Below, one piece after another: positions 357 to 15,087 of a DNA stretch of 64,000 nt. The stretch comes from a phage. The notes under the pieces are model-generated. The model did no database searches and was not told where the DNA came from. It saw only the letters and a program-made list of their open reading frames with translations. Location of the stretch: assembly GCA_014687725.1 (NCBI GenBank), contig GCA_014687725.1_4094.1. The stretch is one strand, 5' to 3'. A program made the position numbers and the translations under genes. How positions within the stretch are numbered: position 1 is the first letter of the stretch; each line of letters opens with the position of its first letter.

Positions 357-412
357 ACTTGCAATTAGTTTTTAAACGCGTATAATGTTTTGCATAGGGG
401 GAGCGGTTCCCC
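357..412 (+). promoter_or_regulatory. class I early promoter + 5'UTR stem-loop cassette (PeSL-like)
   Basis: -35-like ACTTGCA 357-363, TATAAT 381-386, conserved TTTTGCAT, hairpin GGGGGAGCGGTTCCCC 397-412, then SD AAGGA. Confidence 0.6.
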
Positions 413-433
413 TGGTAACTAAGGAATAAGAAA

Positions 434-670
434 ATGGTCGAACAAATCAAATCAACGTCTTCGAATGTAACGGGAACGGTAGCACACTTTACTAGTGATG
501 AATCGCGGGGCGTTCCCTATTGTGCTGTACATGTAAACACTGAGGGTAACTACTGGTTTACGGTTTACGGATCATATTCATTTGGACGGCCAGGGCATCA
601 AAAAATTCTGGATAAAGTACAACCAACGGGTAAAAATATCACTGCCGAAATGTTTTATAAAAAATCATAA
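434..670 (+). CDS. hypothetical small protein (78 aa)
   Basis: ATG with SD AAGGA upstream; follows class I cassette. Confidence 0.7.
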   Translation: MVEQIKSTSSNVTGTVAHFTSDESRGVPYCAVHVNTEGNYWFTVYGSYSFGRPGHQKILDKVQPTGKNITAEMFYKKS

Positions 671-673
671 AGT

Positions 674-734
674 ACTTGATAATAGTTTTTAGTACTGTAT
701 AATATTTTACATCGCAAGGGGGAGCGGTTCCCCC
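674..734 (+). promoter_or_regulatory. class I early promoter + 5'UTR stem-loop cassette
   Basis: TTGATA 676-681, TATAAT 698-703, hairpin GGGGGAGCGGTTCCCCC 718-734. Confidence 0.6.
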
Positions 735-754
735 TGGTAACTAAGGATAATCAA

Positions 755-1054
755 ATGAAAATTGCAATCATCGCCCTGGCTTTATCTGTTTCCTCTTTCG
801 CTGTTAATGCGTCATTAGATGTAAGTAGTGAAAAATTCATTCAGTGCACTGTTGCAATGACCGATGAAAGTACTGGCGAGATTGTTTTAAAGGATTTAGA
901 GATCCAGCCAGAAGCATTTAAAAACGGGCCGTTCCATGAAGAAGACGAAAAAGGTAGCACGACAATTTATTACGATGCAAGTACTAAACGCGGTTCGGTC
1001 ACTGTTATGGATACTGAGAAAGTTACATTCACTGGCGTAATTAATTGTTTATAA
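755..1054 (+). CDS. small secreted/periplasmic protein (predicted signal peptide)
   Basis: N-terminus MKIAIIALALSVSSFAVNA = hydrophobic core + AxA-type cleavage motif; SD AAGGA. Confidence 0.7.
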   Translation: MKIAIIALALSVSSFAVNASLDVSSEKFIQCTVAMTDESTGEIVLKDLEIQPEAFKNGPFHEEDEKGSTTIYYDASTKRGSVTVMDTEKVTFTGVINCL

Positions 1055-1071
1055 TATAGTACTGAATCACT

Positions 1072-1100
1072 AGCCCACTATAAGAAGTGGGCTTTTTTTA
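1072..1100 (+). terminator. rho-independent terminator
   Basis: stem AGCCCACT/AGTGGGCT followed by T7 run. Confidence 0.8.
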
Positions 1101-1150
1101 TTGTAGTATTGTAGTACTGGTATACTTTGAAAATAGTTTTAAAAAAGTAG

Positions 1151-1178
1151 TTGACATTACCAGGGAAAAGCGTAGAAT
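1151..1178 (+). promoter_or_regulatory. sigma70-like promoter with ~115-nt leader
   Basis: TTGACA 1151-1156, 16-nt spacer, TAGAAT 1173-1178. Confidence 0.5.
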
Positions 1179-1292
1179 GTATTACATCAAGACGGGGAAC
1201 ACTAAGTAGACCGCCAGTAAGTCGAATGAAAAACTGGACACGTCAAACAAACTTTGATAAACTAACTTAAACTTTAATTGAGGATTTATAAA

Positions 1293-1775
1293 ATGGCTAA
1301 TGTAAAATCATTTCTGAAAGCACTGATTTCTAACGATACTGTTATTGCTGCTGAATTGCTGGCTGACCTGGATAATGATACCATGAAAGCAGTACGCAAC
1401 AATTTTAACATTGCTTACAGTGAAGCGAAAGAACTACAAGCCAAAAAGGTAGCAGAACTGGAAGAACAGAAAAAAGCCCGTGAAGCAGAACTGCAAGCAA
1501 CAATAGAAAGTATTCAGGCGGCGGTGTCTGGTTTAGATCTGGAAGTGGTTATTGAAATGGCACATAAAGCCCTGGCGGTTAAGTACGGTGAAGATAAGCC
1601 GGAATCTAAGCCTAAAAAATGGATTCAAGAACGTGTTACGGTTGTCCTTGATAACGGGGAAGAACATTTGATTCCTGTACGCGGTAACTGCATTGCGGTA
1701 GTACTGGATGCAATCAAAGAAAGCGGTATGACTCGCGAGGAATGGATCGAAGCTCACCGCAAAGTTGAAGCATAA
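1293..1775 (+). CDS. hypothetical protein (160 aa)
   Basis: ATG 1293 with SD GAGGA 8 nt upstream; track ORF began at in-frame TTG 1278. Confidence 0.75.
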   Translation: MANVKSFLKALISNDTVIAAELLADLDNDTMKAVRNNFNIAYSEAKELQAKKVAELEEQKKAREAELQATIESIQAAVSGLDLEVVIEMAHKALAVKYGEDKPESKPKKWIQERVTVVLDNGEEHLIPVRGNCIAVVLDAIKESGMTREEWIEAHRKVEA

Positions 1776-1796
1776 CAATTAAAGTACTGAATCACT

Positions 1797-1823
1797 AGCC
1801 CACTGTATAAGTGGGCTTTTTTG
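1797..1823 (+). terminator. rho-independent terminator
   Basis: stem AGCCCACT/AGTGGGCT + T-run; near-identical to terminator at 1072-1100. Confidence 0.8.
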
Positions 1824-1839
1824 TGTTTATCGTTTACCA

Positions 1840-1912
1840 GGCCACCAGCACCGCCTAGAATCGATTCTAACGCATTAAACTGATTATCTGATGCATCGCC
1901 CTAGCTGGTGGC
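1840..1912. repeat. inverted-repeat element with opposed Chi octamers flanking a perfect 14-bp palindrome
   Basis: CCACCAGC 1842-1849, palindrome TAGAATCGATTCTA 1856-1869, GCTGGTGG 1904-1911. Confidence 0.5.
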
Positions 1913-1975
1913 GTTAAGGTCGTTAGAATGCGATTGAGGACGTTTAAAGTATTTTGCAAAAAGTAATAAAAAGTA

Positions 1976-2036
1976 CTTGCACGATTAAGAGATTAGCGTA
2001 TAATGTTTTACATCGAGAGGGGGAAACGGTTCTCCT
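1976..2036 (+). promoter_or_regulatory. class I early promoter + 5'UTR stem-loop cassette
   Basis: -35-like TTGCAC 1977-1982, TATAAT 1999-2004, GGGGGAAACGGTTCTCC hairpin in leader. Confidence 0.55.
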
Positions 2037-2059
2037 TCCAAATCAAAGGAATCAAAACA

Positions 2060-2287
2060 ATGGCTATCGTAATCGCTTATGTAACTGGTACTACTGGCAC
2101 TTCTTCTACTGTTGCTGTAATTACCAACAAGAAAGGTGCGGAATTACATTCTGCAATGGATACCTGGGCGGTAAATGAGTTCGGTCAGTGGGCAAGTGTA
2201 GCATATGTTGAAACCTATCAAGTGCCAACCATTAGCTTAACGGATCTCGGTGTAGATCGTATCCTTTGCCTGGATGAATTAAATTAA
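2060..2287 (+). CDS. hypothetical small protein (75 aa)
   Basis: ATG 2060 with SD AAAGGA; track ORF start 2003 lies in promoter -10/leader. Confidence 0.7.
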   Translation: MAIVIAYVTGTTGTSSTVAVITNKKGAELHSAMDTWAVNEFGQWASVAYVETYQVPTISLTDLGVDRILCLDELN

Positions 2288-2373
2288 AAAAGTACTTGCA
2301 AAGTAAATCAGATAAAGTATAATACATTACATCAAGGGGAGAAATGGTTCTCCCTGATAATGAGGAAACTAAT

Positions 2374-2517
2374 ATGAAAACTTGTCAATGTGGTAAAAAA
2401 TCTATTACTGGTTTAAAGCGGGGCGTTGCTCTTTGCCAGTACCATTATAATTTACAAGTATGGGGTAAAGAATGGGCCGACCAGGTGGAAGCAGCAAAGA
2501 AAGCAAAAAGTAAGTAA
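2374..2517 (+). CDS. Cys-rich small protein (47 aa)
   Basis: ATG with SD GAGGAA behind class I cassette; C-x-C...C-x2-H pattern; below track size cut-off. Confidence 0.55.
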   Translation: MKTCQCGKKSITGLKRGVALCQYHYNLQVWGKEWADQVEAAKKAKSK

Positions 2518-2528
2518 AATTATTATCA

Positions 2529-2566
2529 CAGTACTATTGACATAGATTGATAGTACTGGCATAATA
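2529..2566 (+). promoter_or_regulatory. class II promoter with palindromic -35 region
   Basis: TTGACA 2537-2542, 17-nt spacer, CATAAT 2560-2565; -35 embedded in near-palindrome CAGTACTATTGA..TGATAGTACTG. Confidence 0.55.
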
Positions 2567-2598
2567 GATTTTATCAAGACAACTAAGAGGAAACAATA

Positions 2599-2811
2599 AT
2601 GGCTATCATCACAAAAATCAAAGTAAACAAATCACTGGTTAAGCTGGAAGAAGTGAAAGAAGGTTATAAAGTATCGTGGTGCGGCATGTATCGGATTTTT
2701 ACAGATGTTGACGATGCAATCAATTACTACACTGACACGGTAAAAAACTTTGTTCGTGCTGATGTGGTTATGGCAGTGGCAACACACAAAGCATCGAAAG
2801 AAAGTAAGTAA
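2599..2811 (+). CDS. hypothetical small protein (70 aa)
   Basis: ATG with SD AGAGGAA. Confidence 0.7.
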   Translation: MAIITKIKVNKSLVKLEEVKEGYKVSWCGMYRIFTDVDDAINYYTDTVKNFVRADVVMAVATHKASKESK

Positions 2812-2822
2812 AAATATTATCA

Positions 2823-2860
2823 CAGTACTATTGACATAGTTTGATAGTACTGGCATAATA
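2823..2860 (+). promoter_or_regulatory. class II promoter (duplicate of 2529-2566 block)
   Basis: TTGACA 2831-2836, CATAAT 2854-2859; ~80-nt block incl. leader nearly identical to 2508-2590. Confidence 0.55.
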
Positions 2861-2892
2861 GATTTTATCAAGACAACTAAGAGGAAATTAAA

Positions 2893-3237
2893 ATGGCTAA
2901 TATCAACACTATCGCAAAACAAAATATCAACCTGTCTTCTGTTGAAGTTGTACATATTGCCGCTCGGCGTTGGTTCCAGGCTTCATATGGTAACACTTAT
3001 TTCTCTTTAAGTGTAGACGTAGAAATTGATGGTAATTTTATTGAAGTAGTAAACGTGCCGTTCCAATATGGATACGGGGATCACTTTGACACTGTAGCAA
3101 TGGAAGAATTTAGCAAGGTTATTAATATGGAAGATAAAGAGTTTTTACGCGGTTCTTATCTTTCCCGTTTTTGCCGTGACAATAATATCACTGTTTACAG
3201 TTCGGTAACTGATGTTAAACGCAAAAAAGATCTTTAA
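2893..3237 (+). CDS. hypothetical protein (114 aa)
   Basis: ATG with SD AGAGGAA. Confidence 0.7.
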   Translation: MANINTIAKQNINLSSVEVVHIAARRWFQASYGNTYFSLSVDVEIDGNFIEVVNVPFQYGYGDHFDTVAMEEFSKVINMEDKEFLRGSYLSRFCRDNNITVYSSVTDVKRKKDL

Positions 3238-3317
3238 TTAGCTTTACTTTATGCAGATACTTTGATATAGTGTCTGCATAGGGGAAAGAAATTAAATTAA
3301 CTTAAGAGGATAGTATA

Positions 3318-3587
3318 ATGAAAAATATCAGTACTTTAATTGATGCAGGTACACATGTTCGGCGGTCTATGGTTGCAACCAGTACTACAAAACAAGTAGC
3401 GAGCGGTTATCTTGTATTTGTGCACGATGGTAAACTCCTGGAACGTTCAATCAATTTTGATGTTAAAAACAATTGCCGTTTTATTATCTTTAAGCGTGAA
3501 CAATATAAAATTGATTTACCAGCGAAGCCCATAAGCGGGGCGTATAACGTCTATTCATTGTTTGAGCGTCAACCATACACCTATTAA
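3318..3587 (+). CDS. hypothetical protein (89 aa)
   Basis: ATG with SD AAGAGGA. Confidence 0.65.
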   Translation: MKNISTLIDAGTHVRRSMVATSTTKQVASGYLVFVHDGKLLERSINFDVKNNCRFIIFKREQYKIDLPAKPISGAYNVYSLFERQPYTY

Positions 3588-3638
3588 TCAAAACATCGTT
3601 AGCGGTCGATTTAGGCCGCTTATATTGGGGATTATACC

Positions 3639-3911
3639 ATGAACGTTAATCAAGTACTGAATGAGATCGAAAGCATCATTAAACCGATGAAGCGTACTGA
3701 TGCTATGTTAACACCGGAAGAATGCCGCCTTTATGAGCGTTACAGCGTCGAACAAGTCCAGGCAATGGCTATGGCTACGCCAGCCGTTAAACCGCCTGAG
3801 AATGCGTTACAGGACGTTACAGGGGATTATATCATCAATCCAGTACTAGGGAAGATGGCTGCAATCACCGAAGATCAACAAGACTACTTAAGCCAGTACT
3901 TAAAAGGTTAA
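3639..3911 (+). CDS. hypothetical protein (90 aa)
   Basis: ATG preceded by G-rich SD-like TTGGGGA; hairpin upstream. Confidence 0.65.
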   Translation: MNVNQVLNEIESIIKPMKRTDAMLTPEECRLYERYSVEQVQAMAMATPAVKPPENALQDVTGDYIINPVLGKMAAITEDQQDYLSQYLKG

Positions 3912-3916
3912 TTAAT

Positions 3917-4126
3917 ATGCTTACTGTACAGGATAAGATCGACATCTTAAAGGTTAATATGTATGTGATTGATGCAGTACCTGGTAAAGTATTTGCATAC
4001 GATGACACCACTGTAAGCGATTTCTACTATAGCCAGGACGTGGGGGATCTTTCTGTACAGTCGGTTATTGAAAACGTAGTTAATGCAGCGTATGAGCATT
4101 TACTTTCAAATAGTACTTGCAATTAG
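3917..4126 (+). CDS. hypothetical protein (69 aa)
   Basis: ATG 6 nt after previous stop, SD AAAAGG. Confidence 0.6.
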   Translation: MLTVQDKIDILKVNMYVIDAVPGKVFAYDDTTVSDFYYSQDVGDLSVQSVIENVVNAAYEHLLSNSTCN

Positions 4127-4176
4127 TTTTTAAACGCGTATAATGTTTTACATGAAGGGGAGAAATGATTCTCCCC
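4116..4176 (+). promoter_or_regulatory. class I early promoter + 5'UTR stem-loop cassette
   Basis: TTGCAA 4117-4122, TATAAT 4139-4144, hairpin GGGGAGAAATGATTCTCCCC 4157-4176. Confidence 0.6.
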
Positions 4177-4195
4177 ACTAATTAAGGAATATGAA

Positions 4196-4342
4196 ATGAA
4201 AGCATCAAAAAAGAGTAATACTAAGAAAGCACGTTCACCTTTCGCTGGGGTATTCCCTTTACGTTTCGTTGATGAAGTGGTTTCCTACCCGCCTGGCCTT
4301 ACTCCTGAGATGGTAGAAAGTTTGCGTAAATCTAAAAAATAA
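4196..4342 (+). CDS. basic small protein (48 aa)
   Basis: ATG with SD AAGGAA; below track size cut-off. Confidence 0.55.
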   Translation: MKASKKSNTKKARSPFAGVFPLRFVDEVVSYPPGLTPEMVESLRKSKK

Positions 4343-4344
4343 TA

Positions 4345-4405
4345 CTTGCAATTAGTTTTTAGTACTGTATAATAGTTTACATGAAGGGGAGAAATAGTTC
4401 TCCCC
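4345..4405 (+). promoter_or_regulatory. class I early promoter + 5'UTR stem-loop cassette
   Basis: TTGCAA 4346-4351, TATAAT 4368-4373, hairpin GGGGAGAAATAGTTCTCCCC 4386-4405. Confidence 0.6.
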
Positions 4406-4423
4406 AATAACAGGAGAAACAAA

Positions 4424-4576
4424 ATGAAACAATATAATGCTCGGATGGATGTAACTATCGGTAACGGCAAAGGTCAATTCTCTTTCAGTACTCGCAAAAG
4501 TTATACAGAAAACTTCCTGCGTAATTGTGCACTGACCGCCGCACAAATTAAACATTACTTTCAGGCTAAAAAATGA
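4424..4576 (+). CDS. hypothetical small protein (50 aa)
   Basis: ATG with SD AGGAGA; below track cut-off. Confidence 0.55.
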   Translation: MKQYNARMDVTIGNGKGQFSFSTRKSYTENFLRNCALTAAQIKHYFQAKK

Positions 4577-4662
4577 AATCATTAGCTTATTACAGTTCGG
4601 CCCTGGTCGGTGCATTGATCGCGGCATTGTTAGTAACCTATCTATTCTTTATGGTGATTTAA
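4573..4662 (+). CDS. 29-aa hydrophobic peptide (one predicted TM helix)
   Basis: ATGA overlap with upstream stop; MKSLAYYSSALVGALIAALLVTYLFFMVI. Confidence 0.4.
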   Translation: MKSLAYYSSALVGALIAALLVTYLFFMVI

Positions 4663-4800
4663 ATGAATCCTAACGGTTTAATTTACAGTACTCCTAAAAC
4701 GAAAGCAGATAAAGCGAAAGCACGTAAAGCGAAAGTAAAGGAGTACATCAAGCAAGGCATGACGCGAAAGGCGGCAATTCTAAAAGCTAAAAATAAATGA
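4663..4800 (+). CDS. lysine-rich small protein (45 aa)
   Basis: ATG directly after upstream TAA; followed by R1 terminator. Confidence 0.45.
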   Translation: MNPNGLIYSTPKTKADKAKARKAKVKEYIKQGMTRKAAILKAKNK

Positions 4801-4808
4801 AAAAAAAA

Positions 4809-4895
4809 GTGGTTGACTTCGGTCAGCCATTTTGCTATTATGTATTCATTGAGAGATAGCTCACTAGCCCACAGGGTGCATAAGTGTATCTATTG
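4809..4895 (+). repeat. R1 terminator-promoter cassette, copy A (divergent)
   Basis: hairpin TGGTTGACTTCGGTCAGCCA 4810-4829 + T-run; TTGACT 4813-4818 inside hairpin, 17-nt spacer, TATTAT 4836-4841; 3' box AGCCCACAGGGTGCATAAGTGTATCTATTG. Confidence 0.55.
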
Positions 4896-4944
4896 TATAA
4901 TGATTGAGTACTGAAAACTATTTTAAAGTATTTGATAAAAAGTA

Positions 4945-5004
4945 CTTGCATACTATCTCAATAGGCGTATAATGTTTTACATCGCAAGGGGAAACGGTTT
5001 CCCC
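4945..5004 (+). promoter_or_regulatory. class I early promoter + 5'UTR stem-loop cassette
   Basis: CTTGCA 4945-4950, TATAAT 4968-4973, hairpin GGGGAAACGGTTTCCCC 4988-5004. Confidence 0.6.
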
Positions 5005-5024
5005 TGGTAATAAGGAAACGAATC

Positions 5025-5366
5025 ATGACTATTGCAATTGCTCAATCTAACTTTGAAAACGAAATCATCGCTCAGGCACTGCGTTTAAATGATGGTCGGG
5101 CCGAAATCAATTACGGTTTCAATAGTGGTGGATGTGAAAAATATCAGTACTTTATAACTGCTGATGGCGGTGTCCTGGGCATCAATACCGTTATTGTAAA
5201 CATTCAGAAAATTAATTTCAATGATCCAGACGATAGCCAGTTTTACATCACGGGCGTAGACGTGAACTATGAGGATGACTCACTAACTGATGATCACACT
5301 GGTGAGAAGTTAGAAAGTGCATACGGTGAAGATGATTATCAGTCCGGTCCAGAAGATTTCGAATAA
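5025..5366 (+). CDS. hypothetical acidic protein (113 aa)
   Basis: ATG with SD AAGGAA. Confidence 0.7.
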   Translation: MTIAIAQSNFENEIIAQALRLNDGRAEINYGFNSGGCEKYQYFITADGGVLGINTVIVNIQKINFNDPDDSQFYITGVDVNYEDDSLTDDHTGEKLESAYGEDDYQSGPEDFE

Positions 5367-5458
5367 TATTAAAAAATAGTTTGACAATAGTTTTTAGTAC
5401 TGTATAATAGTTTACATGAAGGGGAGAAATGATTCTCCCCACTAAGAGGAAAAACAAA

Positions 5459-5671
5459 ATGGCTAATATCCGCACTGTACTGAAAAATGCAAAACAAGTT
5501 TTATTTTCTGATCATGAAAATTTCAACAAGGATATCACAGGTGTTCGGAATATCAAAGATGTAAAAAGTGTTATGGGTATCTATTGCAATATGAAACGTG
5601 TTGGCACGTTCGGCGATAAAGTACTATACCAGGCAGGGGATTACAATTTTACACTGACTATCATTAACTAA
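5459..5671 (+). CDS. hypothetical small protein (70 aa)
   Basis: ATG 5459 with SD AGAGGA; track start 5429 lies inside leader hairpin. Confidence 0.7.
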   Translation: MANIRTVLKNAKQVLFSDHENFNKDITGVRNIKDVKSVMGIYCNMKRVGTFGDKVLYQAGDYNFTLTIIN

Positions 5672-5684
5672 AAATATTATCACA

Positions 5685-5720
5685 GTACTATTGACAACGT
5701 TTGATAGTACTGGCATAATA
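5685..5720 (+). promoter_or_regulatory. class II palindromic promoter
   Basis: TTGACA 5691-5696, CATAAT 5714-5719; CAGTACTATTGACA..TGATAGTACTG. Confidence 0.55.
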
Positions 5721-5762
5721 ACTTTTATCAAGACAACGCATATTAATTTAAGGAATACTAAA

Positions 5763-5942
5763 ATGGCTATTATCGCAAAAACTGAAATCATCGGCCTGGA
5801 TTCTATCATCATGACGTTTGAAGATCAAAAAGGGATGTATGTAGTTTCCTATGGTGATTATGTTCGGGAGTATGAAACGGTAGACGAAGCCTTTGAAAGT
5901 TACATTCGCCAGGTGAATAAAGCATACGACGACTACCGCTAA
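5763..5942 (+). CDS. hypothetical small protein (59 aa)
   Basis: ATG 5763 with SD AAGGAA; track ORF started in promoter. Confidence 0.6.
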   Translation: MAIIAKTEIIGLDSIIMTFEDQKGMYVVSYGDYVREYETVDEAFESYIRQVNKAYDDYR

Positions 5943-5961
5943 AATATATTACCAGTACTAT

Positions 5962-5997
5962 TAAATCTATTGACAATGATTGATAGTACAGTATAAT
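5962..5997 (+). promoter_or_regulatory. class II palindromic promoter
   Basis: TTGACA 5970-5975, TATAAT 5992-5997. Confidence 0.5.
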
Positions 5998-6041
5998 AAG
6001 TTTTATAAACAGTAGTTAACTTAACCTAAGAGAGAAACAAA

Positions 6042-6185
6042 ATGATCGCACTGGATTCATTCATCGACGCAGTACTGGCAAAAACTGGCGAGGATCTGAC
6101 CGCAGAACAATACGCGATGATCGAGCAATGCCAGCAAAACGGTAAATCGGTGAAAGATACTGTTAAGATTATCCGCAAGATGTAA
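6042..6185 (+). CDS. hypothetical small protein (47 aa)
   Basis: ATG with SD AAGAGAGA; below track cut-off. Confidence 0.55.
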   Translation: MIALDSFIDAVLAKTGEDLTAEQYAMIEQCQQNGKSVKDTVKIIRKM

Positions 6186-6191
6186 GAATAT

Positions 6192-6220
6192 AGCCCACTG
6201 GTTAACGCTGGTGGGCTTTA
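6192..6220 (+). terminator. terminator-like hairpin containing a Chi octamer
   Basis: stem AGCCCAC/GTGGGCT with 12-nt loop, weak T-tract; GCTGGTGG 6207-6214. Confidence 0.4.
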
Positions 6221-6290
6221 ATCATTTACCCTATACAATGCCAGTACTAAACCGTTTAACTCGTTAGAATGCATTACAGGACGTTTAACA

Positions 6291-6488
6291 ATGATTAGCA
6301 TGAAATCAGTACAAAAACAAATTGATACATTATCAAAAATTAAACGTAAACAATACTCATTAGAATATACAATCAATGGTAACTATCATCTAATGAAAGA
6401 GAATAATTTCATAGTCATTGATGAATCATTGCAAGTTATTAGTATAGTACTGAAAGCATTAATCAATGACAGAAAAAAGTTAAAATAA
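6291..6488 (+). CDS. hypothetical small protein (65 aa), weak
   Basis: Track ORF; poor SD, very AT-rich. Confidence 0.35.
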   Translation: MISMKSVQKQIDTLSKIKRKQYSLEYTINGNYHLMKENNFIVIDESLQVISIVLKALINDRKKLK

Positions 6489-6492
6489 TCTA

Positions 6493-6521
6493 TTGACAAA
6501 TTATGCCAGTACTGGCATAAT
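6493..6521 (+). promoter_or_regulatory. class II-type promoter
   Basis: TTGACA 6493-6498, 17-nt spacer, CATAAT 6516-6521. Confidence 0.55.
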
Positions 6522-6583
6522 ACTTACATCAAGACGAGAACGTCACTAACCCATAGGGTGCACAAATGTAGCTGTCTAATATT

Positions 6584-6614
6584 GATCAAAAAATGATCTG
6601 ATCAATACTTGATC
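6584..6614. promoter_or_regulatory. GATC cluster within repeated TGATCA motifs (4 GATC in 31 bp)
   Basis: GATC at 6584, 6595, 6600, 6611; sits in a 330-bp gene-free region. Confidence 0.5.
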
Positions 6615-6819
6615 AATTTGCGTAAAGTAGTATAATTCTATGCAGTTGGTTAGACGAAAGGTTATGATTAGTAGTGGAAGTGTATAAAAATTTTCATGGT
6701 GTGGTGATCCGCACATATGGGGATGAATATGTCGTGTCGTATGGATTGGAAAAAGTAAGAACAAGTAATATACTTGTCGCGTTACAGTACTATAGTATTT
6801 TTATAATGAGGTTAAAATA

Positions 6820-8812: not shown

Positions 8813-9088
8813 ATGCGGATTCTACTGACAGCTAACGAAATCGAACAAGTACTGACTACTAACCTGGAAGACTGGAAACGTGAAGCAGATATCCAGGCGG
8901 TTCAACGGCTTAACGATGAGTTAACGCCGGATGACTTAAGCAAGATTGTAGATCCTCAATTCTACGAAGATATCCACGACACCGCGTTAAGCGTCGAGGA
9001 TGTACTAGATAAGCACTACATTGATATTGATTTGCAGGTTTACGGTCGTAAAAACTTTATCACTATTCACGACATTTACAATAATTAA
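8813..9088 (+). CDS. hypothetical protein (91 aa)
   Basis: ATG with SD AAGGAA; two promoters upstream. Confidence 0.7.
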   Translation: MRILLTANEIEQVLTTNLEDWKREADIQAVQRLNDELTPDDLSKIVDPQFYEDIHDTALSVEDVLDKHYIDIDLQVYGRKNFITIHDIYNN

Positions 9089-9174
9089 GTATTGACAAAG
9101 TATCTTAGTACTGTATAATAGTTTACATCGAGAGGGGGAATGGTTCCCCTCCTAACAAAGAGAGAGAAATAAAA

Positions 9175-9357
9175 ATGGCTAAATGCACTATCTGTAAGAA
9201 AGAAATCGTATTAGTTCCAAGTGCCCGTGAACGTGCCGCTCGGTTCGGTGGCAAACCGTCAGACTATACAAAAATGTTTACTGTCCATGCAGCTTGCCAG
9301 GTAGCAAAACGTTCACAAGAAAGCGTAGAATTAATGCGTAAACTTTCCAAAAAATAA
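9175..9357 (+). CDS. hypothetical small protein (60 aa), Cys-containing
   Basis: ATG with SD AGAGAGA behind class I cassette. Confidence 0.7.
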   Translation: MAKCTICKKEIVLVPSARERAARFGGKPSDYTKMFTVHAACQVAKRSQESVELMRKLSKK

Positions 9358-9445
9358 GTATTGACAAAGTATCTTAGTACTGTATAATAGTTTACATCAA
9401 GTGAGGGGAAACGGTTCCCCTCCTAACAAAGAGAGAGAAATAAAA

Positions 9446-9769
9446 ATGGCTATGATCCTTGCCCAGAAAGTAGAACTGAAAATTGTAACCTCCTTTGACA
9501 TTAAAGTTAATCGGTGGACTGATTCACACGGCAATACTTACCACTCTTGCTACGTGTCTGCGTTAATTGGTGATCGTTGGGAAGACCTGGGACATGAAAC
9601 CTTTACATACGGTTACGGCACACAAGGCGAATACACGGGCTTGGAGATCATTAAAGAAACCGTTATAGGTTTCAACCCGAAAGAAACAGTTATTCACCGC
9701 ATCGAGGAAGAGATCAACAAAGAAATAACAGTTCGATACTACGATGTAAAACGTAAGAAAGATATGTAA
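9446..9769 (+). CDS. hypothetical protein (107 aa)
   Basis: ATG 9446; track start 9401 is a GTG inside the leader hairpin; cassette 9355-9445 duplicates 9084-9174. Confidence 0.7.
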   Translation: MAMILAQKVELKIVTSFDIKVNRWTDSHGNTYHSCYVSALIGDRWEDLGHETFTYGYGTQGEYTGLEIIKETVIGFNPKETVIHRIEEEINKEITVRYYDVKRKKDM

Positions 9770-9855
9770 TAGAATCCATTTAAAGTACTATTTGACATTG
9801 CCCAGATAGTACTTTATAATAGACTCTAACTTGTAGTACTAACTCAACTAATAGG

Positions 9856-10260
9856 ATGTATACCATGATTACTAAATTCTACGCTACCCGTGAAGCTGCC
9901 CGTATTGTTGCACGCGAGGAAGGAGCAGCATTTAAAGACATGGGCAAAGATGCACCGAAAGGCCAACGCTGGGCCGTACAGTTCAAAGAGATCTCTGATA
10001 TTGTGAATTCACCTGAGCCAGTACTAACAGCAGCAGAACTAAAACGAGCGGATTTACTGGCGTCAATACTTGATGCACAAGATGAGTTTATCGCTGATTC
10101 TGATATCAAAGTACAGACAAACCATACCGCTTGGACTCACGCGGATCACCTGGCAAACCTGAAGCGTCCAAGTGAACTGGTACGCAACCAGAAAGAGATC
10201 CGACACGACCGTAAGGGTAATCGTGTAACAGTATACAGTAAACGCCGCCAGGTTATCTAA
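9856..10260 (+). CDS. hypothetical protein (134 aa)
   Basis: Track ORF; alternative ATG at 9865; GC-richer than neighbours. Confidence 0.7.
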   Translation: MYTMITKFYATREAARIVAREEGAAFKDMGKDAPKGQRWAVQFKEISDIVNSPEPVLTAAELKRADLLASILDAQDEFIADSDIKVQTNHTAWTHADHLANLKRPSELVRNQKEIRHDRKGNRVTVYSKRRQVI

Positions 10261-10282
10261 TAACTTGCAGTACTAACAACAC

Positions 10283-10308
10283 GGCGGGATCAGTTCCCGC
10301 CTTTTTTA
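10283..10308 (+). terminator. rho-independent terminator
   Basis: stem GGCGGGA/TCCCGCC + T6. Confidence 0.8.
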
Positions 10309-10321
10309 TAGGACAAACAAA

Positions 10322-10576
10322 ATGATTAAGGTTCAACTATATAAAGATAATATCTTGCGGGTACACTATAAAGCCCCTCAGAGAATCATCACAAAGGCCG
10401 TACAGCTTGCTAATGAGTTTATTAATGGTAACCTATTACCAAGGAAGTTAAGCAACGGAAAACTGCGTGTAATCGATGTAGACACTAACAACAGAATAGT
10501 AATTGAGAACACAGGAAAGATAAACCTATATGAACACCAACAATATAATAAGAAAATAAAACTAATATCACGTTGA
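10322..10576 (+). CDS. hypothetical protein (84 aa)
   Basis: ATG with SD AGGA. Confidence 0.6.
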   Translation: MIKVQLYKDNILRVHYKAPQRIITKAVQLANEFINGNLLPRKLSNGKLRVIDVDTNNRIVIENTGKINLYEHQQYNKKIKLISR

Positions 10577-10629
10577 CAGTACTCAATTGTTTTAGTACTA
10601 TGTACATATACCAACACGGGAGAAACAAA

Positions 10630-10848
10630 ATGAAATTATCTAAAATCGAAAAGAAAACTATTGATGAAGCAGTTAAGCACGGTTATACCTTTCGTAATGA
10701 TTCACATTTTACCAATTTTCAACAAGGGTATCGTACTATTAAAAAACTCATTGACAAAGGTTTATTAGTTGAAGTCAATAACGGCAATGGTATTGAGTAT
10801 CAACCAACACAAGACGCATTTTATTTTAAGAAATATAATATTATCTAA
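10630..10848 (+). CDS. hypothetical protein (72 aa)
   Basis: ATG 10630 with SD GGGAGAAA; track start 10573 is the TTG of the promoter -35. Confidence 0.65.
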   Translation: MKLSKIEKKTIDEAVKHGYTFRNDSHFTNFQQGYRTIKKLIDKGLLVEVNNGNGIEYQPTQDAFYFKKYNII

Positions 10849-10905
10849 TTGACAGTACTCAAATGTTTTAGTACTATATGTACATACCAACACGGGGAAA
10901 ACAAA

Positions 10906-11148
10906 ATGATTACTTTAGAAAAACGTATCAAAGAAACTACATCGCTGGTGGAACTGTTAACAGTACTGAAATGCCGTACTACTCGGTTTAGTACACCGGA
11001 CTTTATTAATATGGTTGATGTTAACGGTCGTTATCGCATTGCAGTAGAACAAGGAACAGCGAAAGTATTCAGTACTAAAAACACTAAGGAAGTGATTCAT
11101 GCTGTAAGTGTTAAAAAAGTAGTTGCCATTGATAGTAAAGTACTGTAA
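10906..11148 (+). CDS. hypothetical protein (80 aa)
   Basis: ATG 10906; promoter/leader block 10849-10905 duplicates 10563-10629. Confidence 0.65.
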   Translation: MITLEKRIKETTSLVELLTVLKCRTTRFSTPDFINMVDVNGRYRIAVEQGTAKVFSTKNTKEVIHAVSVKKVVAIDSKVL

Positions 11149-11179
11149 GATAGTTTCATTAACTCAAGGAGAACATGCA

Positions 11180-11764
11180 ATGCGTAATTATACTAAATTC
11201 ATCCGTACCCTGTCAGAAATGGAAACCAACAAAGAGATCCTTTCAGCTTGTCGGTTAGCTGGTCTGGAGATCATCGGTGCGGGTTCTTCCCGTATTGTAT
11301 TCGCTTTAAATGATCGGTTAGTGATCAAGGTCGCGAATTGTGATGCGGGTGTAGAACAAAATGAAACTGAATGTAAGGTATGGAATTTTTTAGATTATGA
11401 CCGCCCTCAATTGAAACAGTACTTTGCAAAGGTGCATATGCATTTATGCGATCCTGATAATATGTTTATCGTTATGGATCGGTTGAGTACTGCAAGTAAA
11501 GGCAGTGTAAAGCACGTAAACGCGTGCAATGAATTAAAGTACAATATTAAACGTAATGCCATTGAACGCCAGCACCGCTTTGCTGATGCACTACAACACG
11601 TTGATGATACATTATCAACACTAACGATAAGAGATATCAGAAAACAGAATATCGGCCAGGATCGTAATGGCCTTATTAAAGTACTTGATTACGGTTTAAC
11701 CCGCAATATCTGGAATCAGTACTATAAAAAGCGTGATGTAGAAGCAAGTAAGGTAACACGATAA
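11180..11764 (+). CDS. protein kinase-like protein (eukaryote-type kinase fold)
   Basis: Gly-rich loop GAGSSRIVF, VIKVA lysine, catalytic-loop-like IRDIRKQN, DFG-like DYG; ATG with SD AAGGAG. Confidence 0.75.
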   Translation: MRNYTKFIRTLSEMETNKEILSACRLAGLEIIGAGSSRIVFALNDRLVIKVANCDAGVEQNETECKVWNFLDYDRPQLKQYFAKVHMHLCDPDNMFIVMDRLSTASKGSVKHVNACNELKYNIKRNAIERQHRFADALQHVDDTLSTLTIRDIRKQNIGQDRNGLIKVLDYGLTRNIWNQYYKKRDVEASKVTR

Positions 11765-11771
11765 AAAAGAT

Positions 11772-11862
11772 TAAAAAAGGGATTGACTCCGGTCAGTCCC
11801 TTTGCTATTATATATTCATTGAGAGATAACTCACTGACCCATAGGGTGCGGAAGTGTATCTA
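11772..11862 (+). repeat. R1 terminator-promoter cassette, copy C
   Basis: hairpin 11779-11800; TTGACT 11783-11788, TATTAT 11806-11811. Confidence 0.6.
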
Positions 11863-11984
11863 TTATATAAGTATTCAGTACTGAAAACTATTTTAAAAAA
11901 GTACTTGCAATGTACTTAGAATCAAGTATAATGTTTTACATAGAGAGGGGGAAATGGTTCTCCCTGGTAATAAGGAATAAAATC

Positions 11985-12206
11985 ATGACTACAATGACTT
12001 GCATTTACGCTTCCAATCTTCTGAATGATGCGGCCTTTAATGTTGATTCAGAATATCAATGTTATCGGGATGAAAATAAAAAAGTTTTTGTAGTTGATAA
12101 TAATGGTTTCCATATTGAATTACAATCCGGTTTCACTGGTGTTGATGGTAAATCAGTGTGGGGCGTACAGGATGATAAAGGCACATATCATTTTAAACGT
12201 AATTAA
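11985..12206 (+). CDS. hypothetical small protein (73 aa)
   Basis: ATG 11985 with SD AAGGAA; track start 11910 is inside promoter/leader. Confidence 0.7.
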   Translation: MTTMTCIYASNLLNDAAFNVDSEYQCYRDENKKVFVVDNNGFHIELQSGFTGVDGKSVWGVQDDKGTYHFKRN

Positions 12207-12290
12207 GTATTGACAAAGTATATCAGTACTGTATAATAGTTTACATCAAGGGGAGAATAGTTCTCCCCGATACTAAAAGGAAACAAAATT

Positions 12291-12563
12291 ATGTCCAGCT
12301 ACTCCGCTACTATGATCATTAAAGATATGAACGGTAATCCTACTTCTGCTGGTGGATCATTTGGAAACATTAATTTAGATGGTCGGTTATCCATGCAATC
12401 AGCCATCGATGCAGCGAAAGAAGTTTTTAAGAATGAATGTACTGTTAGTAAGCTGGATTATATGGGATTCGCTATCGAGAAAACTAATCGTTTTGTGAAC
12501 TACAAAAATCCACTGATGATTGATACTAACCTGAAAGCTAACGAAGTGGGGTACTTATTATGA
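12291..12563 (+). CDS. hypothetical protein (90 aa)
   Basis: ATG with SD AAAGGAA behind class I cassette. Confidence 0.7.
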   Translation: MSSYSATMIIKDMNGNPTSAGGSFGNINLDGRLSMQSAIDAAKEVFKNECTVSKLDYMGFAIEKTNRFVNYKNPLMIDTNLKANEVGYLL

Positions 12564-12751
12564 CAGTAGAAGAAGTTAAAAAAGTACTGGCAGTACTACG
12601 CTATCATAATCATTGCAAGGTGAAGAATGATCCTGATTATGTTGATTCATCCCTGGAGGAAGACACATTAAACGCAATAAGCCATATGCAAACATTAGCA
12701 AAGCGTATGACCGAAAAGAATAGACCGGACTATATCGGAAATAAAATTTAA
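12560..12751 (+). CDS. hypothetical small protein (63 aa)
   Basis: ATGA overlap with upstream stop. Confidence 0.6.
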   Translation: MTVEEVKKVLAVLRYHNHCKVKNDPDYVDSSLEEDTLNAISHMQTLAKRMTEKNRPDYIGNKI

Positions 12752-12837
12752 AAAGTACTTGCATTGTAGTTAGATTAACGTATAATGTTTTACATAGAGC
12801 GGGGGAACTATTCCCCCGCCAGTCCAGGAGATACACC

Positions 12838-13101
12838 ATGAACACTATCGAAATCACTATCAATGCACACGTATACGACAACGTAGTACTGCAAACTACT
12901 ATGACCGCTAATGATACCAGTACTTTGCGGAATACTGTTATTAGTGCCGTATGTGCCGCTATCGGTGATGTCGCCCTGGAAAATGCAGAACACATCAACA
13001 ACGGTTTCACTATGTGCAAACGTGATAACGCAAAACATATCATCGTAGAAGGTTACGGCGGTGTAGAATATAATCTTTATATGAAAAAAGTACTTGCATA
13101 A
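12838..13101 (+). CDS. hypothetical protein (87 aa)
   Basis: ATG with SD AGGAGA behind class I cassette. Confidence 0.7.
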   Translation: MNTIEITINAHVYDNVVLQTTMTANDTSTLRNTVISAVCAAIGDVALENAEHINNGFTMCKRDNAKHIIVEGYGGVEYNLYMKKVLA

Positions 13102-13168
13102 TAACTAAAACAAAGTATAATGTTTTGCATAGGGGGAGATATCCTCCCCCACTAAAAGGAGTAATAAA

Positions 13169-13393
13169 ATGGCTAACTTTGATGAACTGATGCGGGAAGT
13201 AGCTAACCTGGCAGAAGAGAAGAAATCATTCGATTCTATCTATAACACCGCTCACCGTGATTCAGTACTGGCATGTACTCAGGATCAAAAAGATGAACTA
13301 ATCGCCACATATCATGAAGCATGGAAGTACTACCGCCAATGGGAGAAAGAAGAAAGCGAGTCTACCATCAACGGCATCAATAATCTAATCTAA
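13169..13393 (+). CDS. hypothetical small protein (74 aa)
   Basis: ATG with SD AAAGGAG behind class I cassette. Confidence 0.7.
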   Translation: MANFDELMREVANLAEEKKSFDSIYNTAHRDSVLACTQDQKDELIATYHEAWKYYRQWEKEESESTINGINNLI

Positions 13394-13469
13394 AAGTTTT
13401 ATTTCAGTACTATTGACATAGCTTGATAGTACTGATGTAATAACTTTACTAACTACAAGGGGAAACATA

Positions 13470-13727
13470 ATGGAACAGTTCACACAATATCGGGTAAATC
13501 CTCAAGCTATGGCCTACGTAGAAGACCATAAAACGTTACCAGTACTAACACCAATTAAAGGCCATATCTATCGTGCAATGTCATGGAATACGGCCCAGGA
13601 TGGATATACTACCGCTGGCGTGGGTATGTATTGCGGGAATGGTGAATGGTTTGATCCAAATAATCCGGTAGCCATTGACAGTACTGAAAAAATGAAATGG
13701 GCCGACTACATCGAAGATATTTCATAA
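13470..13727 (+). CDS. hypothetical protein (85 aa)
   Basis: ATG with SD AAGGGGAA behind class II promoter (TTGACA 13413-13418). Confidence 0.7.
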   Translation: MEQFTQYRVNPQAMAYVEDHKTLPVLTPIKGHIYRAMSWNTAQDGYTTAGVGMYCGNGEWFDPNNPVAIDSTEKMKWADYIEDIS

Positions 13728-13816
13728 AACTATTTGACAGTACTAACCAGTAATGTATAATGTTTTACATAGAGCGGGGGAATAGTTCTCCCGCCAATAG
13801 TTTGGAGTAAAACATT

Positions 13817-14017
13817 ATGTCTATCGCTATCGCCCTGGTTGAAGTACTGAAAGAAGCTAAAGCCAACCTTATCGATGTACAGATTAAGGAATTACAAAAT
13901 GGTTTAATCGGCTGTACTTGTACCGCTGGTGGAGCGGCAGACTATCGGGAATTCGAATCACTTGAATCGATGGTCCGTTATCTTACCATGATCGTAGAAG
14001 ATTGGAGAATCATCTAA
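13817..14017 (+). CDS. hypothetical small protein (66 aa)
   Basis: ATG with SD TTGGAG behind class I cassette. Confidence 0.7.
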   Translation: MSIAIALVEVLKEAKANLIDVQIKELQNGLIGCTCTAGGAADYREFESLESMVRYLTMIVEDWRII

Positions 14018-14028
14018 CAAAAAAGAAT

Positions 14029-14115
14029 AAAAAAAGGGATTGACTCCGGTCAGTCCCTTTGCTATTATATACGCATAGACAAAAACTAGCCCACTGGGTG
14101 CAGGAGTGTATCTAA
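14029..14115 (+). repeat. R1 terminator-promoter cassette, copy D
   Basis: hairpin 14036-14057; TTGACT 14040-14045, TATTAT 14063-14068. Confidence 0.6.
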
Positions 14116-14263
14116 AATATATAGTTAATAACGGTGAGTAACTATCTGCTGGTGGGGTGAAAACTATTAATAAAAAAAGTATTGACAAAGTATATCAGTA
14201 CTGCAATAATGTATCTCGTAGGGCGGCAATGGTGCGACGGCCCACAAAGTTAGGAGATTCAAA

Positions 14264-14596
14264 ATGAGTACTTCAATCGCTATCGTTAAAGCTTTCATCC
14301 GTACCAATGTTTCATCTGTATTCATCGACGGTCTGGATCGGGAAGTAGAATACTCAATCATTATCGCACAGACTGCAAACGGTGCTCGGTATATCCTTAA
14401 TGATAGTGAAGCAAATCACTACTACTTCACTAAAGCTACTGGCTTTAAACGCATCGATGCTGACGTAGTATACACTAAGATGAATAAGCTGGTAGACAAG
14501 ATTAACGCGAAAGGTACTATCGATTTACAGTACTGGACCGAAACCGATCCAGAATATGGATCTCACCGCTACCTGAATCCAGGTATTAAAATGTAA
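14264..14596 (+). CDS. hypothetical protein (110 aa)
   Basis: ATG with SD TAGGAGA. Confidence 0.7.
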   Translation: MSTSIAIVKAFIRTNVSSVFIDGLDREVEYSIIIAQTANGARYILNDSEANHYYFTKATGFKRIDADVVYTKMNKLVDKINAKGTIDLQYWTETDPEYGSHRYLNPGIKM

Positions 14597-14685
14597 AAAG
14601 TACTTGCATAGTACTTAGAATCAAGTATAATGTTTTACATAGAGAGGGGGAAATGGTTCTCCCTCCTAAATTAAGGAGTTTTATC

Positions 14686-15087
14686 ATGACCTTCTCAATC
14701 AATTCCTTCGCTGACGTTTTAGTACTGGCTCGGACTTTCGGTAAAGATGCACTGGAGTACGCTGTAAGTAATGGTACTATCCAACCGGAACAGTGCCGCA
14801 TCATTGGAAACTGCAAACGTTGGGCGGTATCCAATACTATTGCACTGGAAAACTTCCACGATGGCAACAATGAATATTCTGTTGATGTAGTATTCGAAGC
14901 CGTTGATCTCGGCGGTATCTATAATACTAACCTGAATGATGTGCGTATCGTTCGCACGGGGTTCGGTGCTTATGATGTATCTATTCGTGAAGCTATGAAC
15001 ACCGGATACATTAGCAAGGACTTACTTGCTCACATCATGCAGCTGTGTACGGAACGTAACGAAGCACGCACTATCTTAGGACTGTAA
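14686..15087 (+). CDS. hypothetical protein (133 aa)
   Basis: ATG 14686 with SD AAGGAG; track start 14653 lies in leader hairpin. Confidence 0.7.
   Translation: MTFSINSFADVLVLARTFGKDALEYAVSNGTIQPEQCRIIGNCKRWAVSNTIALENFHDGNNEYSVDVVFEAVDLGGIYNTNLNDVRIVRTGFGAYDVSIREAMNTGYISKDLLAHIMQLCTERNEARTILGL

Follow-up and report, generated by a model that had tools for sequence, protein, structure and literature searches.

A promoter, leader-hairpin, and ribosome-site cassette repeated 18 times in the terminal repeat of an Asteriusvirus-like jumbo coliphage: a probable portable early expression unit

Why should a phage carry the same promoter and leader hairpin in front of one unrelated gene after another? 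The question is raised by a stretch of 64,000 nucleotides of phage DNA (GenBank assembly GCA_014687725.1, contig GCA_014687725.1_4094.1; hereafter the window), in which a unit made of a promoter, a hairpin in the 5′ untranslated region (UTR), and a Shine-Dalgarno (SD) sequence recurs between positions 357 and 14,686. The original prediction, made from the sequence alone, had compared these units with the promoter early stem-loop (PeSL) elements of T4-type phages. We consider it probable that they serve an Asteriusvirus-type jumbo coliphage as portable cassettes for immediate-early expression, with the hairpin acting in the mRNA and the units recombining with one another as direct repeats.

The whole window was scanned for G-rich hairpins preceded by a TATAAT-like hexamer. 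Exactly 18 units were found, all on the + strand, and the remaining matches in the 64 kb look like chance. The same 18 had been named in the original prediction by the genes behind them, and all were recovered by the scan, each with an ATG where its predicted gene begins. They are listed below, with −35 and −10 positions given as the starts of the hexamers.

359–436 (+): cassette 1; −35 TTGCAA 359, −10 TATAAT 381, hairpin 396–413, ATG 434; 83.5 bits
676–757 (+): cassette 2; −35 TTGATA 676, −10 698, hairpin 717–735, ATG 755
1977–2062 (+): cassette 3; −10 1999, leader ATCGAGAGGG, hairpin 2017–2038 with two G·U pairs, ATG 2060
2296–2376 (+): cassette 4; −35 TTGCAA 2296, −10 2318, hairpin 2336–2355, ATG 2374
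4117–4198 (+): cassette 5; −10 4139, hairpin 4157–4176 (GGGGAGAA-atga-TTCTCCCC), ATG 4196; left partner in the 121Q deletion of gene 4196–4342
4346–4426 (+): cassette 6; −10 4368, hairpin 4386–4405, ATG 4424; right partner in the 121Q deletion of gene 4196–4342
4946–5027 (+): cassette 7; −10 4968, hairpin 4987–5005, ATG 5025
5381–5461 (+): cassette 8; −35 TTGACA 5381, −10 5403, hairpin 5421–5440, ATG 5459
7501–7578 (+): cassette 9; −10 TATAGT 7524, hairpin 7540–7558, ATG 7576; right partner in the BF17 deletion of the GNAT gene
7772–7851 (+): cassette 10; −35 TTGACA 7772, −10 7794, hairpin 7812–7831 with one T·T mismatch, ATG 7849
9092–9177 (+): cassette 11; −35 TTGACA 9092, −10 9114, hairpin 9132–9151, ATG 9175; left partner in the 121Q deletion of gene 9175–9357
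9361–9448 (+): cassette 12; −35 TTGACA 9361, −10 9383, hairpin 9403–9422, ATG 9446; right partner in the 121Q deletion of gene 9175–9357
11905–11987 (+): cassette 13; −10 11927, hairpin 11946–11965, ATG 11985; 104.6 bits
12210–12293 (+): cassette 14; −35 TTGACA 12210, −10 12232, hairpin 12250–12268, ATG 12291; two copies flank an extra gene in fEgEco12 and vB_Ec-M-J
12759–12840 (+): cassette 15; −10 12781, hairpin 12799–12819 (GCGGGGGAA-cta-TTCCCCCGC), ATG 12838; left partner in the 121Q deletion of gene 12838–13101
13094–13171 (+): cassette 16; −10 13116, hairpin 13132–13150, ATG 13169; right partner in the 121Q deletion of gene 12838–13101
13734–13819 (+): cassette 17; −35 TTGACA 13734, −10 13756, hairpin 13774–13794, ATG 13817
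14604–14688 (+): cassette 18; −10 14626, hairpin 14644–14665, ATG 14686

Measured from −35 to ATG, the units span ~80–90 nt, in agreement with the ~80 nt first estimated. Their promoters have a TTGACA, TTGCAA, or TTGCAT −35 hexamer and a 16-nt spacer, and the hexamers match the consensus at 10–12 of 12 positions, which makes them near-consensus sigma-70 promoters; an A-rich run precedes the −35. TTGACA had been named correctly as one −35 form, and the second proposed form, CTTGCA, proved to be a shifted frame of TTGCAA/TTGCAT. AGTACTG, expected in the spacer, adjoins the −10 in 8 copies, and the leader behind the −10 is conserved as (G/A)NTTT(A/G)CAT. This leader gave 60 matches at up to three mismatches, compared with 29.5 ± 5.3 in shuffles, and all but one of the matches with at most one mismatch lie within 1–15 kb. 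The open reading frame (ORF) start MFYIERGK, suspected to be spurious, arises from the ATG within TATAATG at 2003. When window 1–15,400 was scanned on the + strand for hairpins of any kind, 22 were found, and 16 of these start 2–16 nt past a −10-like site; only 14% of positions fall into such a zone. The predicted association of hairpin and promoter is far above chance.

The C-A step of the conserved CAT sits 7–8 nt past the −10, which is the favored start position and sequence of Escherichia coli RNA polymerase. The predicted transcription start is thus the A of CAT, at 8 nt past the −10. In the A1 promoter of phage T7 (annotated start 498, NC_001604), a 7-nt discriminator also ends in C and the transcript begins ATCGAGAGGG; counted from the predicted start, cassettes 3 and 11 (−10 at 1999 and 9114) likewise begin with ATCGAGAGGG and are identical to T7 A1 over the first 10 nt. 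The hairpins have stems of 7–9 bp with a G-run in the 5′ arm and a C-run in the 3′ arm. They begin 8–14 nt downstream of the −10 in all 18 cassettes and in ~90 copies in relatives, that is, 2–7 nt past the predicted start, so that the unpaired 5′ tail is 2–7 nt long (median 5). From the end of the hairpin to the ATG there are 17–23 nt (median 19), containing an SD sequence of the AAGGA, GAGGA, or AGGAG type. The 5′ UTR of ~45 nt thus consists of three parts: a tail, a hairpin, and a ribosome-binding stretch. On folding, all 18 leaders formed the hairpin (−9.5 to −17.4 kcal/mol), with negative z-scores against dinucleotide shuffles in every case (−1.0 to −3.5), and the SD and AUG were unpaired in all 18 folds.

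The 18 downstream proteins have no similarity to one another, which rules out that the cassettes are by-products of gene duplication. None of them had a significant Pfam match, and two gave weak sub-threshold matches. Nearly all cassette-driven genes are labeled hypothetical in the annotated sister genomes.

Window 1–12,000 was compared with GenBank phages by megablast, and 116 records matched. The best matches were Asteriusvirus jumbo phages of E. coli (121Q, PBECO4, slurp01, vB_Ec-M-J, fEgEco12, and others; 348–384 kb), with an identity of 91–96% (up to 91–99% in blocks) and a coverage of 37–75%. Such low coverage at such identity indicates that the region is a mosaic. Judged by this similarity, the window is from an Asteriusvirus-like (121Q/PBECO4; Rak2-like) jumbo coliphage and not from a T4-type phage. 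In vB_Ec-M-J, the counterpart of the cassette region is annotated as “Direct Terminal Repeats” (1–21,525), and the terminal repeat of fEgEco12 is 20,993 bp long, as confirmed by restriction digests (PMC13070987). Projection of the vB_Ec-M-J and fEgEco12 repeat ends through blastn blocks placed the right end of the direct terminal repeat at ~15,517; window 1 to ~15,517 is therefore the right three-quarters of a ~21-kb repeat, and the interval 357–14,686 lies entirely within it. Because the promoters are near-consensus sigma-70 promoters and stand in the terminal repeat, it is a reasonable inference that the cassettes drive early genes.

A covariance model built from the 18 copies was searched against both strands of the window at E ≤ 1. 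No further copy was found in the 48 kb outside the terminal repeat. Inside it, the model found three degenerate variants (1128–1237, 8613–8693, and 14160–14266) and then plain promoters only. With their leaders, the variants extend as follows.

1128–1295 (+): variant cassette with the same promoter and start region; −10 TAGAAT 1173, leader of ~100 nt containing a T7-A1-leader-like element at 1202–1237; 43 bits
8613–8745 (+): variant cassette with a class-A promoter and start region; −10 8658, longer structured leader (~90 nt); 57 bits
14160–14266 (+): variant cassette; −35 TTGACA 14182, −10 AATAAT, a different G/C-rich leader hairpin, ATG 14264; 34.5 bits

The variant at 8613–8745 has no ORF between its promoter and the next promoter at 8752, and the region 8636–8751 could encode a small non-coding early RNA. 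No Rfam family matched the cassette in a scan of 1–16 kb at E ≤ 1. Within the window, the cassettes thus keep to the direct terminal repeat.

Is the hairpin maintained as a structure? Covariation was evaluated in 114 copies with 49–56 distinct hairpins, taken from the window, four Asteriusvirus terminal repeats (L001–L004), a Vequintavirinae phage (L005), and the terminal repeat of a Klebsiella jumbo phage (L006). A MAFFT alignment of whole cassettes left the stems out of register and was replaced by a loop-anchored alignment with N-padded loops. The stems occur as GGGGAGAA, GAGGGGGAA, GCGGGGGAA, AGCGGGAA, GTGGGGAA, GCGGGAA, and others, and the 3′ arm tracks each change; the loops are free in sequence and in length (3–6 nt). 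In this alignment, which is anchored on the structure itself, 89.7% of cells in the 56 distinct hairpins were paired compared with 79.2% in column shuffles, and 61 cells had changed on both sides compared with 24 in shuffles; none of 500 shuffles reached either value. The covariation score was 0.408, compared with 0.204 in shuffles and 0.11–0.17 with slid partners. In the stem core (the seven pairs next to the loop), 15 G·T and no A·C pairs were present, both having been allowed in detection. This asymmetry points to a structure of the + strand, either in the mRNA or, less likely, in a displaced DNA strand, and it disfavors a DNA-level palindrome such as a repressor operator or a cruciform. 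These results indicate that the pairing is under selection on the sense strand.

Breakpoints between the window (1–15,600) and four Asteriusvirus relatives were taken from blastn blocks, which gave 14 indel or replacement events and thus 28 endpoints. Half of the endpoints (14/28) lie in cassettes, whose share of the region is 12.3% (binomial p = 1.3e-6); without the borderline event at 7762–7764, 12 of 28 do. Genes 434–670, 4196–4342, 9175–9357, and 12838–13101 each have two flanking cassettes in the window, and 121Q has one chimeric cassette in place of each; a diverged copy of 434–670 (77% identical) is found at another location in 121Q. In fEgEco12 and vB_Ec-M-J, an extra gene lies between two copies of cassette 14, and BF17 has lost the GNAT gene (7141–7497) between a promoter at 7084 and cassette 9. 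The modular gene shuffling proposed at the outset is supported by this concentration of breakpoints and by the replacement of a gene and its two cassettes with a single chimeric one. The crossovers fall in the −35/spacer (12797/13085), the spacer (395/668 and 7094/7515), and the −10/leader (2017/2047); being scattered with no fixed site, they suggest general homologous recombination. The hairpin patch of orthologous genes can also differ where promoter and SD are identical (window 12781 compared with fEgEco12 18256), which suggests gene conversion among copies. The 80–100-bp units would thus serve as dispersed direct repeats through which homologous recombination could delete, insert, or swap the flanked ORFan genes, and recombination between them would generate the mosaic of the terminal repeat among sister phages.

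The cassette was also found elsewhere. In the complete 121Q contig, all 12 exact matches to the leader pattern lie within the equivalent of the terminal repeat (137.8–156.6 kb), and genomes deposited with both copies of the repeat gave approximately twice as many blastn places as one-copy genomes. It is present in the terminal repeat of Klebsiella phage fENko-Kae01, has matches in Salmonella jumbo phages such as 7t3 (by blastn), and occurs in uncultivated jumbo-phage contigs with the leader GCATA-GGGGG and a predicted 3-nt tail. In a pattern scan of IMG/VR, multiple true copies were seen only in jumbo-phage contigs, and the contigs with a single match carried no cassette and were set aside as chance. 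A few copies are also found in the 145-kb Vequintavirinae phages. Between 4000 and 8400 of the rV5-like Escherichia phage A7_1 (L005, 145 kb), there are homologs of six window genes (434–670, 2060–2517, 2599–2811, 2893–3237, 5025–5366, and 5459–5671) with 72–87% nucleotide identity in a different order, and some of them carry the same promoter-hairpin cassette. This similarity points to an exchange of early-gene modules between unrelated phage families.

How might the unit work? Since the hairpin is selected as a sense-strand structure, it most probably acts in the mRNA of its own gene. The cassette would supply a near-consensus promoter for host sigma-70 together with the A-rich upstream tract, and the conserved start region would set the start at the A of CAT and yield a purine-rich initial transcript, T7 A1-like in some copies. 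The 7–9-bp hairpin would then begin ~5 nt from the predicted 5′ end and be followed by an unstructured ribosome-binding stretch of 17–23 nt. With a ribosome bound right behind the hairpin, almost no single-stranded leader would be left; such a joint effect is suggested by the tight spacing between the two. In addition, the SD-like 5′ G-run and the anti-SD-like 3′ C-run would sequester each other. The outcome would be stable, context-independent expression of any downstream ORF. It is known that a 5′ hairpin impedes RppH and 5′-end-dependent decay by RNase E (PMC3997798). A compact 5′ UTR module with a stabilizing or insulating role is the likeliest reading of the hairpin, and taken by itself we would put it well short of an even chance.

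Several points weigh against this reading. With a 5′ tail of ~5 unpaired nucleotides, the hairpin lies farther from the end than classical 5′ stabilizers do. RNase E steps over simple stem-loops (PMC9943677), so a stabilizing role is not secure, and the idea that the hairpin blocks RNase E scanning is weakened by the same bypass of orthogonal stem-loops. Promoter use and start site are predictions; literature searches on Asteriusvirus, 121Q, and PBECO4 found no transcriptome. Of the promoters in the terminal repeat, about half have no hairpin, and the fEgEco12 ortholog of gene 2060 has a hairpin-less promoter, so that some genes at least can do without the hairpin. Since the copies are related to one another, the events counted as covariation are not independent, and the G·T asymmetry is also compatible with a + strand folded as single-stranded DNA. 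Finally, the conservation of stem sequence (G on the 5′ arm, GAA/TTC by the loop) could reflect protein recognition or gene conversion.

If the units were PeSLs in the strict sense, the stem-loop would terminate or dampen read-through from upstream and so insulate each ORFan, after which the promoter would restart transcription. The stem-loops of published PeSLs also have G-run/C-run arms, and reporter assays showed that they terminated transcription (PMC2839356); in the packed genes of the window a stop codon stands directly before the next −35, so that read-through must be common. However, none of the 18 hairpins precedes a T-run (their tails read, for example, ACTAA.., GGTAA.., and CCTAA..), and a terminator scan lists none of them. 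Intrinsic terminators combine a GC-rich hairpin with an immediate U-tract; all 18 units have the hairpin and lack the U-tract, although canonical hairpin-plus-T-run terminators were listed by the scan in the same region, as follows.

195–217: canonical terminator
1072–1093: canonical terminator
1797–1817: canonical terminator
10283–10301: canonical terminator

Cassettes directly behind terminators keep their hairpin, for example, cassette 3 (behind the terminator at 1797–1817) and cassette 7. Across eight loci, 110 of the 112 purine-arm hairpins on the cassette strand have a −10 site 5–18 nt upstream, and the two promoterless ones have T-tracts and look like real terminators. A terminator at this fixed distance downstream of the −10 would also be met by the transcripts of its own promoter. 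Together, the missing T-run, the strict coupling to a promoter, and the retention behind real terminators assign the hairpin to the 5′ end of its own transcript and favor a leader function over a free-standing terminator; we regard termination as an unlikely role for it. Equally improbable, in our estimation, is an operator through which a protein of the phage or of its host (a translational repressor, a T4 RegB-type endoribonuclease, or an antiterminator) switches the early genes of the terminal repeat together. A global switch of this kind would need a shared element on ~20 early mRNAs, which the cassettes would provide, and the stem is conserved beyond the needs of pairing: one G-C pair is invariant, G is always on the 5′ arm, the loop-adjacent GAA/UUC is kept in ~90% of hairpins, and GGAG occurs in many 5′ arms. 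But the loops vary freely in sequence and length, the stem variants AGCGGGAA, GTGGGGAA, and GCGGGAA lack GGAG, recombination and gene conversion among copies can account for the conservation, and no candidate binding protein was identified.

Two further readings we hold to be very improbable. A hairpin that served a dedicated recombinase as a site-specific signal, folded from a single strand like an integron attC site, would fit the G·T-only asymmetry, which suits one folded strand of either DNA or RNA, and the sharing of cassette-plus-gene modules between unrelated phages, whose order differs in the Vequintavirinae phage A7_1; the authors of the PeSL work also speculated on a protein recognizing GGGG...CCCC. 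Against this, the mapped crossovers are spread over the promoter part of the cassette and not gathered at a fixed point of the hairpin. The hairpin might instead be a functionless passenger of a promoter repeat spread by duplication and gene conversion, since the copies are homogenized and orthologous sites differ in patches with identical flanks, as at window 12781 and fEgEco12 18256. Pairing is, however, kept through A-U, G·U, G-C, C-G, and U-A changes at five stem positions and across two phage clades with different leaders, with no A·C in the core. A broader proposal, to which we would also give decidedly little weight, is that the terminal repeat is an integron-like cassette array for immediate-early ORFans, in which the hairpin is a dedicated signal (an RNA operator of an early switch or a folded-strand recombination signal) and the module moves host-takeover genes among Asteriusvirus, the Klebsiella/Salmonella jumbo clade, and Vequintavirinae. 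Portable expression cassettes with an mRNA hairpin remain the interpretation that we prefer.

Other repeated elements are present in the window. AGTACT is its most common hexamer (233 copies compared with 21 expected from base composition), often occurs as CAGTACTG, and is found in coding and intergenic DNA alike. No copies are present at 16–20 kb and 24–28 kb. It is enriched 11- to 23-fold in every related jumbo-phage locus examined (L001, L003, L006, L008, L014, and L035) and is not enriched in the Vequintavirinae locus. In promoters, it sits at the 5′ edge of the −35 (AGTACTTGCA) and adjoins the −10 (AGTACTGTATAAT). A composite hairpin-promoter and a second promoter cassette recur as well.

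4806–4841: composite hairpin-promoter, 12-bp hairpin AAAGGGATTGAC-TCCG-GTCAGTCCCTTT
8499–8534: composite hairpin-promoter, second copy
11776–11811: composite hairpin-promoter, third copy
14033–14068: composite hairpin-promoter, fourth copy
2521–2598: second promoter cassette, TTGACA-N17-CATAAT with TG, no leader hairpin
2817–2892: second promoter cassette
5676–5762: second promoter cassette
5945–6041: second promoter cassette
13400–13469: second promoter cassette

A −35 TTGACT lies within the composite hairpin, and TGCTATTAT, an extended −10, comes after the hairpin. The element has the look of a terminator combined with a promoter and, as such, would be nearer than the 18 cassettes to the layout of published PeSLs. 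A conserved ..AGCCCACAGGGTGCA.. motif lies 3′ of each copy and is also found at ~6556–6570 and in L006. The second promoter cassette has a conserved leader, ..TTTATCAAGACAAC..TAAGAGGAAA, and an inverted repeat, CAGTACTAT-N12-ATAGTACTG, that brackets the −35.

A few terminal-repeat genes, at 6820–7077, 7141–7497, 11180–11764, and 755–1054, have recognizable functions. They comprise a DksA/TraR-type zinc finger (Pfam E = 1.6e-10), the GNAT acetyltransferase at 7141–7497 (named from the annotation in relatives), a weak match to a protein kinase, and a signal-peptide protein annotated as “spackle” in fEgEco12. Such genes would fit an early region for host takeover or superinfection exclusion. From 15,585 on, past the end of the repeat, paralogous genes of ~65–75 amino acids form a long tandem array and overlap one another, start with stop; the array contains neither AGTACT nor cassettes.

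Several known systems share features with these cassettes. The likeness to T7 A1 comprises the 7-nt discriminator ending in C, the start at A, and the transcript AUCGAGAGGG, as in cassettes 3 and 11; T7 differs in having three tandem promoters before a single long early operon processed by RNase III, with no promoter for each small gene. A 36-nt element, TAAGTAGACCGCCAGTAAGTCGAATGAAAAACTGG, lies in the variant cassette at 1202–1237 (promoter −10 at 1173) and matches the T7 A1 leader (T7 nt ~550–586) at 30 of 36 positions, with a local alignment score of 40 compared with 16.9 ± 2.3 in shuffles (maximum 28 of 500). It is also found in L006 (~3626–3662), and a possible stem, CCUG..CAGG in the T7 leader and CCAG..CUGG at 1202–1237, differs by a compensatory change. 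The element had no Rfam match.

The mRNAs of ompA and papA carry 5′-terminal stabilizer stem-loops (Emory, Bouvet and Belasco 1992, as cited in PMC3997798). The cassettes resemble ompA-type stabilizers in having a stable hairpin near the 5′ end followed by the ribosome-binding site, and in the conservation of pairing at the RNA level (covariation; 15 G·U and no A·C). Stabilizers of this type leave ~0–4 unpaired 5′ nucleotides; the predicted tails here are 2–7 nt (median 5), and 3 nt in the GCATA-GGGGG subtype. Most of the predicted tails measure 5 nt, which exceeds the optimum for protection. The pre-early region of phage T5 is likewise a long direct terminal repeat with promoters for host RNA polymerase and small host-takeover genes, and the combination of host-type promoters and small genes in such a repeat is shared by the window; we know of no stereotyped leader hairpin in T5. 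The flanks of lambdoid morons are unrelated, and their insertion is attributed to illegitimate recombination. Morons are similar in being single genes with their own promoter added to phage genomes, and different in that the cassette here itself supplies the homology. Integron attC sites differ from the hairpins described here, which have no fixed crossover position, the crossovers lying at −35, spacer, and −10/leader.

PeSLs are known from the phage pairs RB49/phi1, PST/T4, and nt-1/KVP40 as composite promoter/stem-loop elements near ORFans, whose recombination yields indels and mini-circles (Arbiol et al. 2010, PMC2839356; Comeau et al. 2014, PMC4122927). Their stem-loop is a terminator; it precedes the promoter or lies within it, and at its farthest downstream it comes immediately ahead of the start site (PMC2839356, PMC4122927). 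The cassettes share with them the early promoter of sigma-70 type, the AT-rich upstream tract, the G-run/C-run stem-loop, and the SD/ATG at the 3′ end. Both are dense in a plastic, ORFan-rich region, and in both, the ends of indels between close relatives fall in the elements, with a single chimeric element left behind. They differ in the carrier, a Rak2-like jumbo phage (Asteriusvirus) here and T4-like phages for PeSLs, and in the confinement of the cassettes to the direct terminal repeat. The stem-loop here occupies a fixed site within the transcribed 5′ UTR, downstream of the −10, whereas PeSL positions are variable; there is no terminator-like U-tract, and the cassettes have direct evidence of sense-strand covariation. 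Of the likeness originally proposed, the combination of promoter, hairpin, and SD and the shuffling stand. Of the features in the published description of PeSLs, three are missing here: the position of the stem-loop, the terminator-like sequence, and the T4-type host. A distant blastn search with the cassette gave 56 records, none from a T4-type phage; the elements of RB49 were compared by blastn only. No description of these cassettes or promoters was found in the papers searched on Asteriusviruses and their relatives, 121Q and PBECO4 among them.

The set provides a compact natural expression unit of ~90 nt (promoter, T7-A1-like start, leader hairpin, and ribosome-binding site) that is portable and stands before dozens of unrelated ORFs, and thus a ready test bed for the effects of 5′ UTR hairpins on mRNA fate in E. 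coli. It also flags the genes behind the cassettes as immediate-early and probably concerned with host takeover or anti-defense, in a phage group under development for therapy. The breakpoint evidence is unusually clean. Cassette-mediated shuffling, previously described for T4-like phages only, is hereby extended to the long terminal repeats of Rak2-like jumbo phages. The cassettes are PeSL-like in their shuffling behavior and different in architecture, with the hairpin placed in the 5′ UTR of the gene that each cassette precedes.

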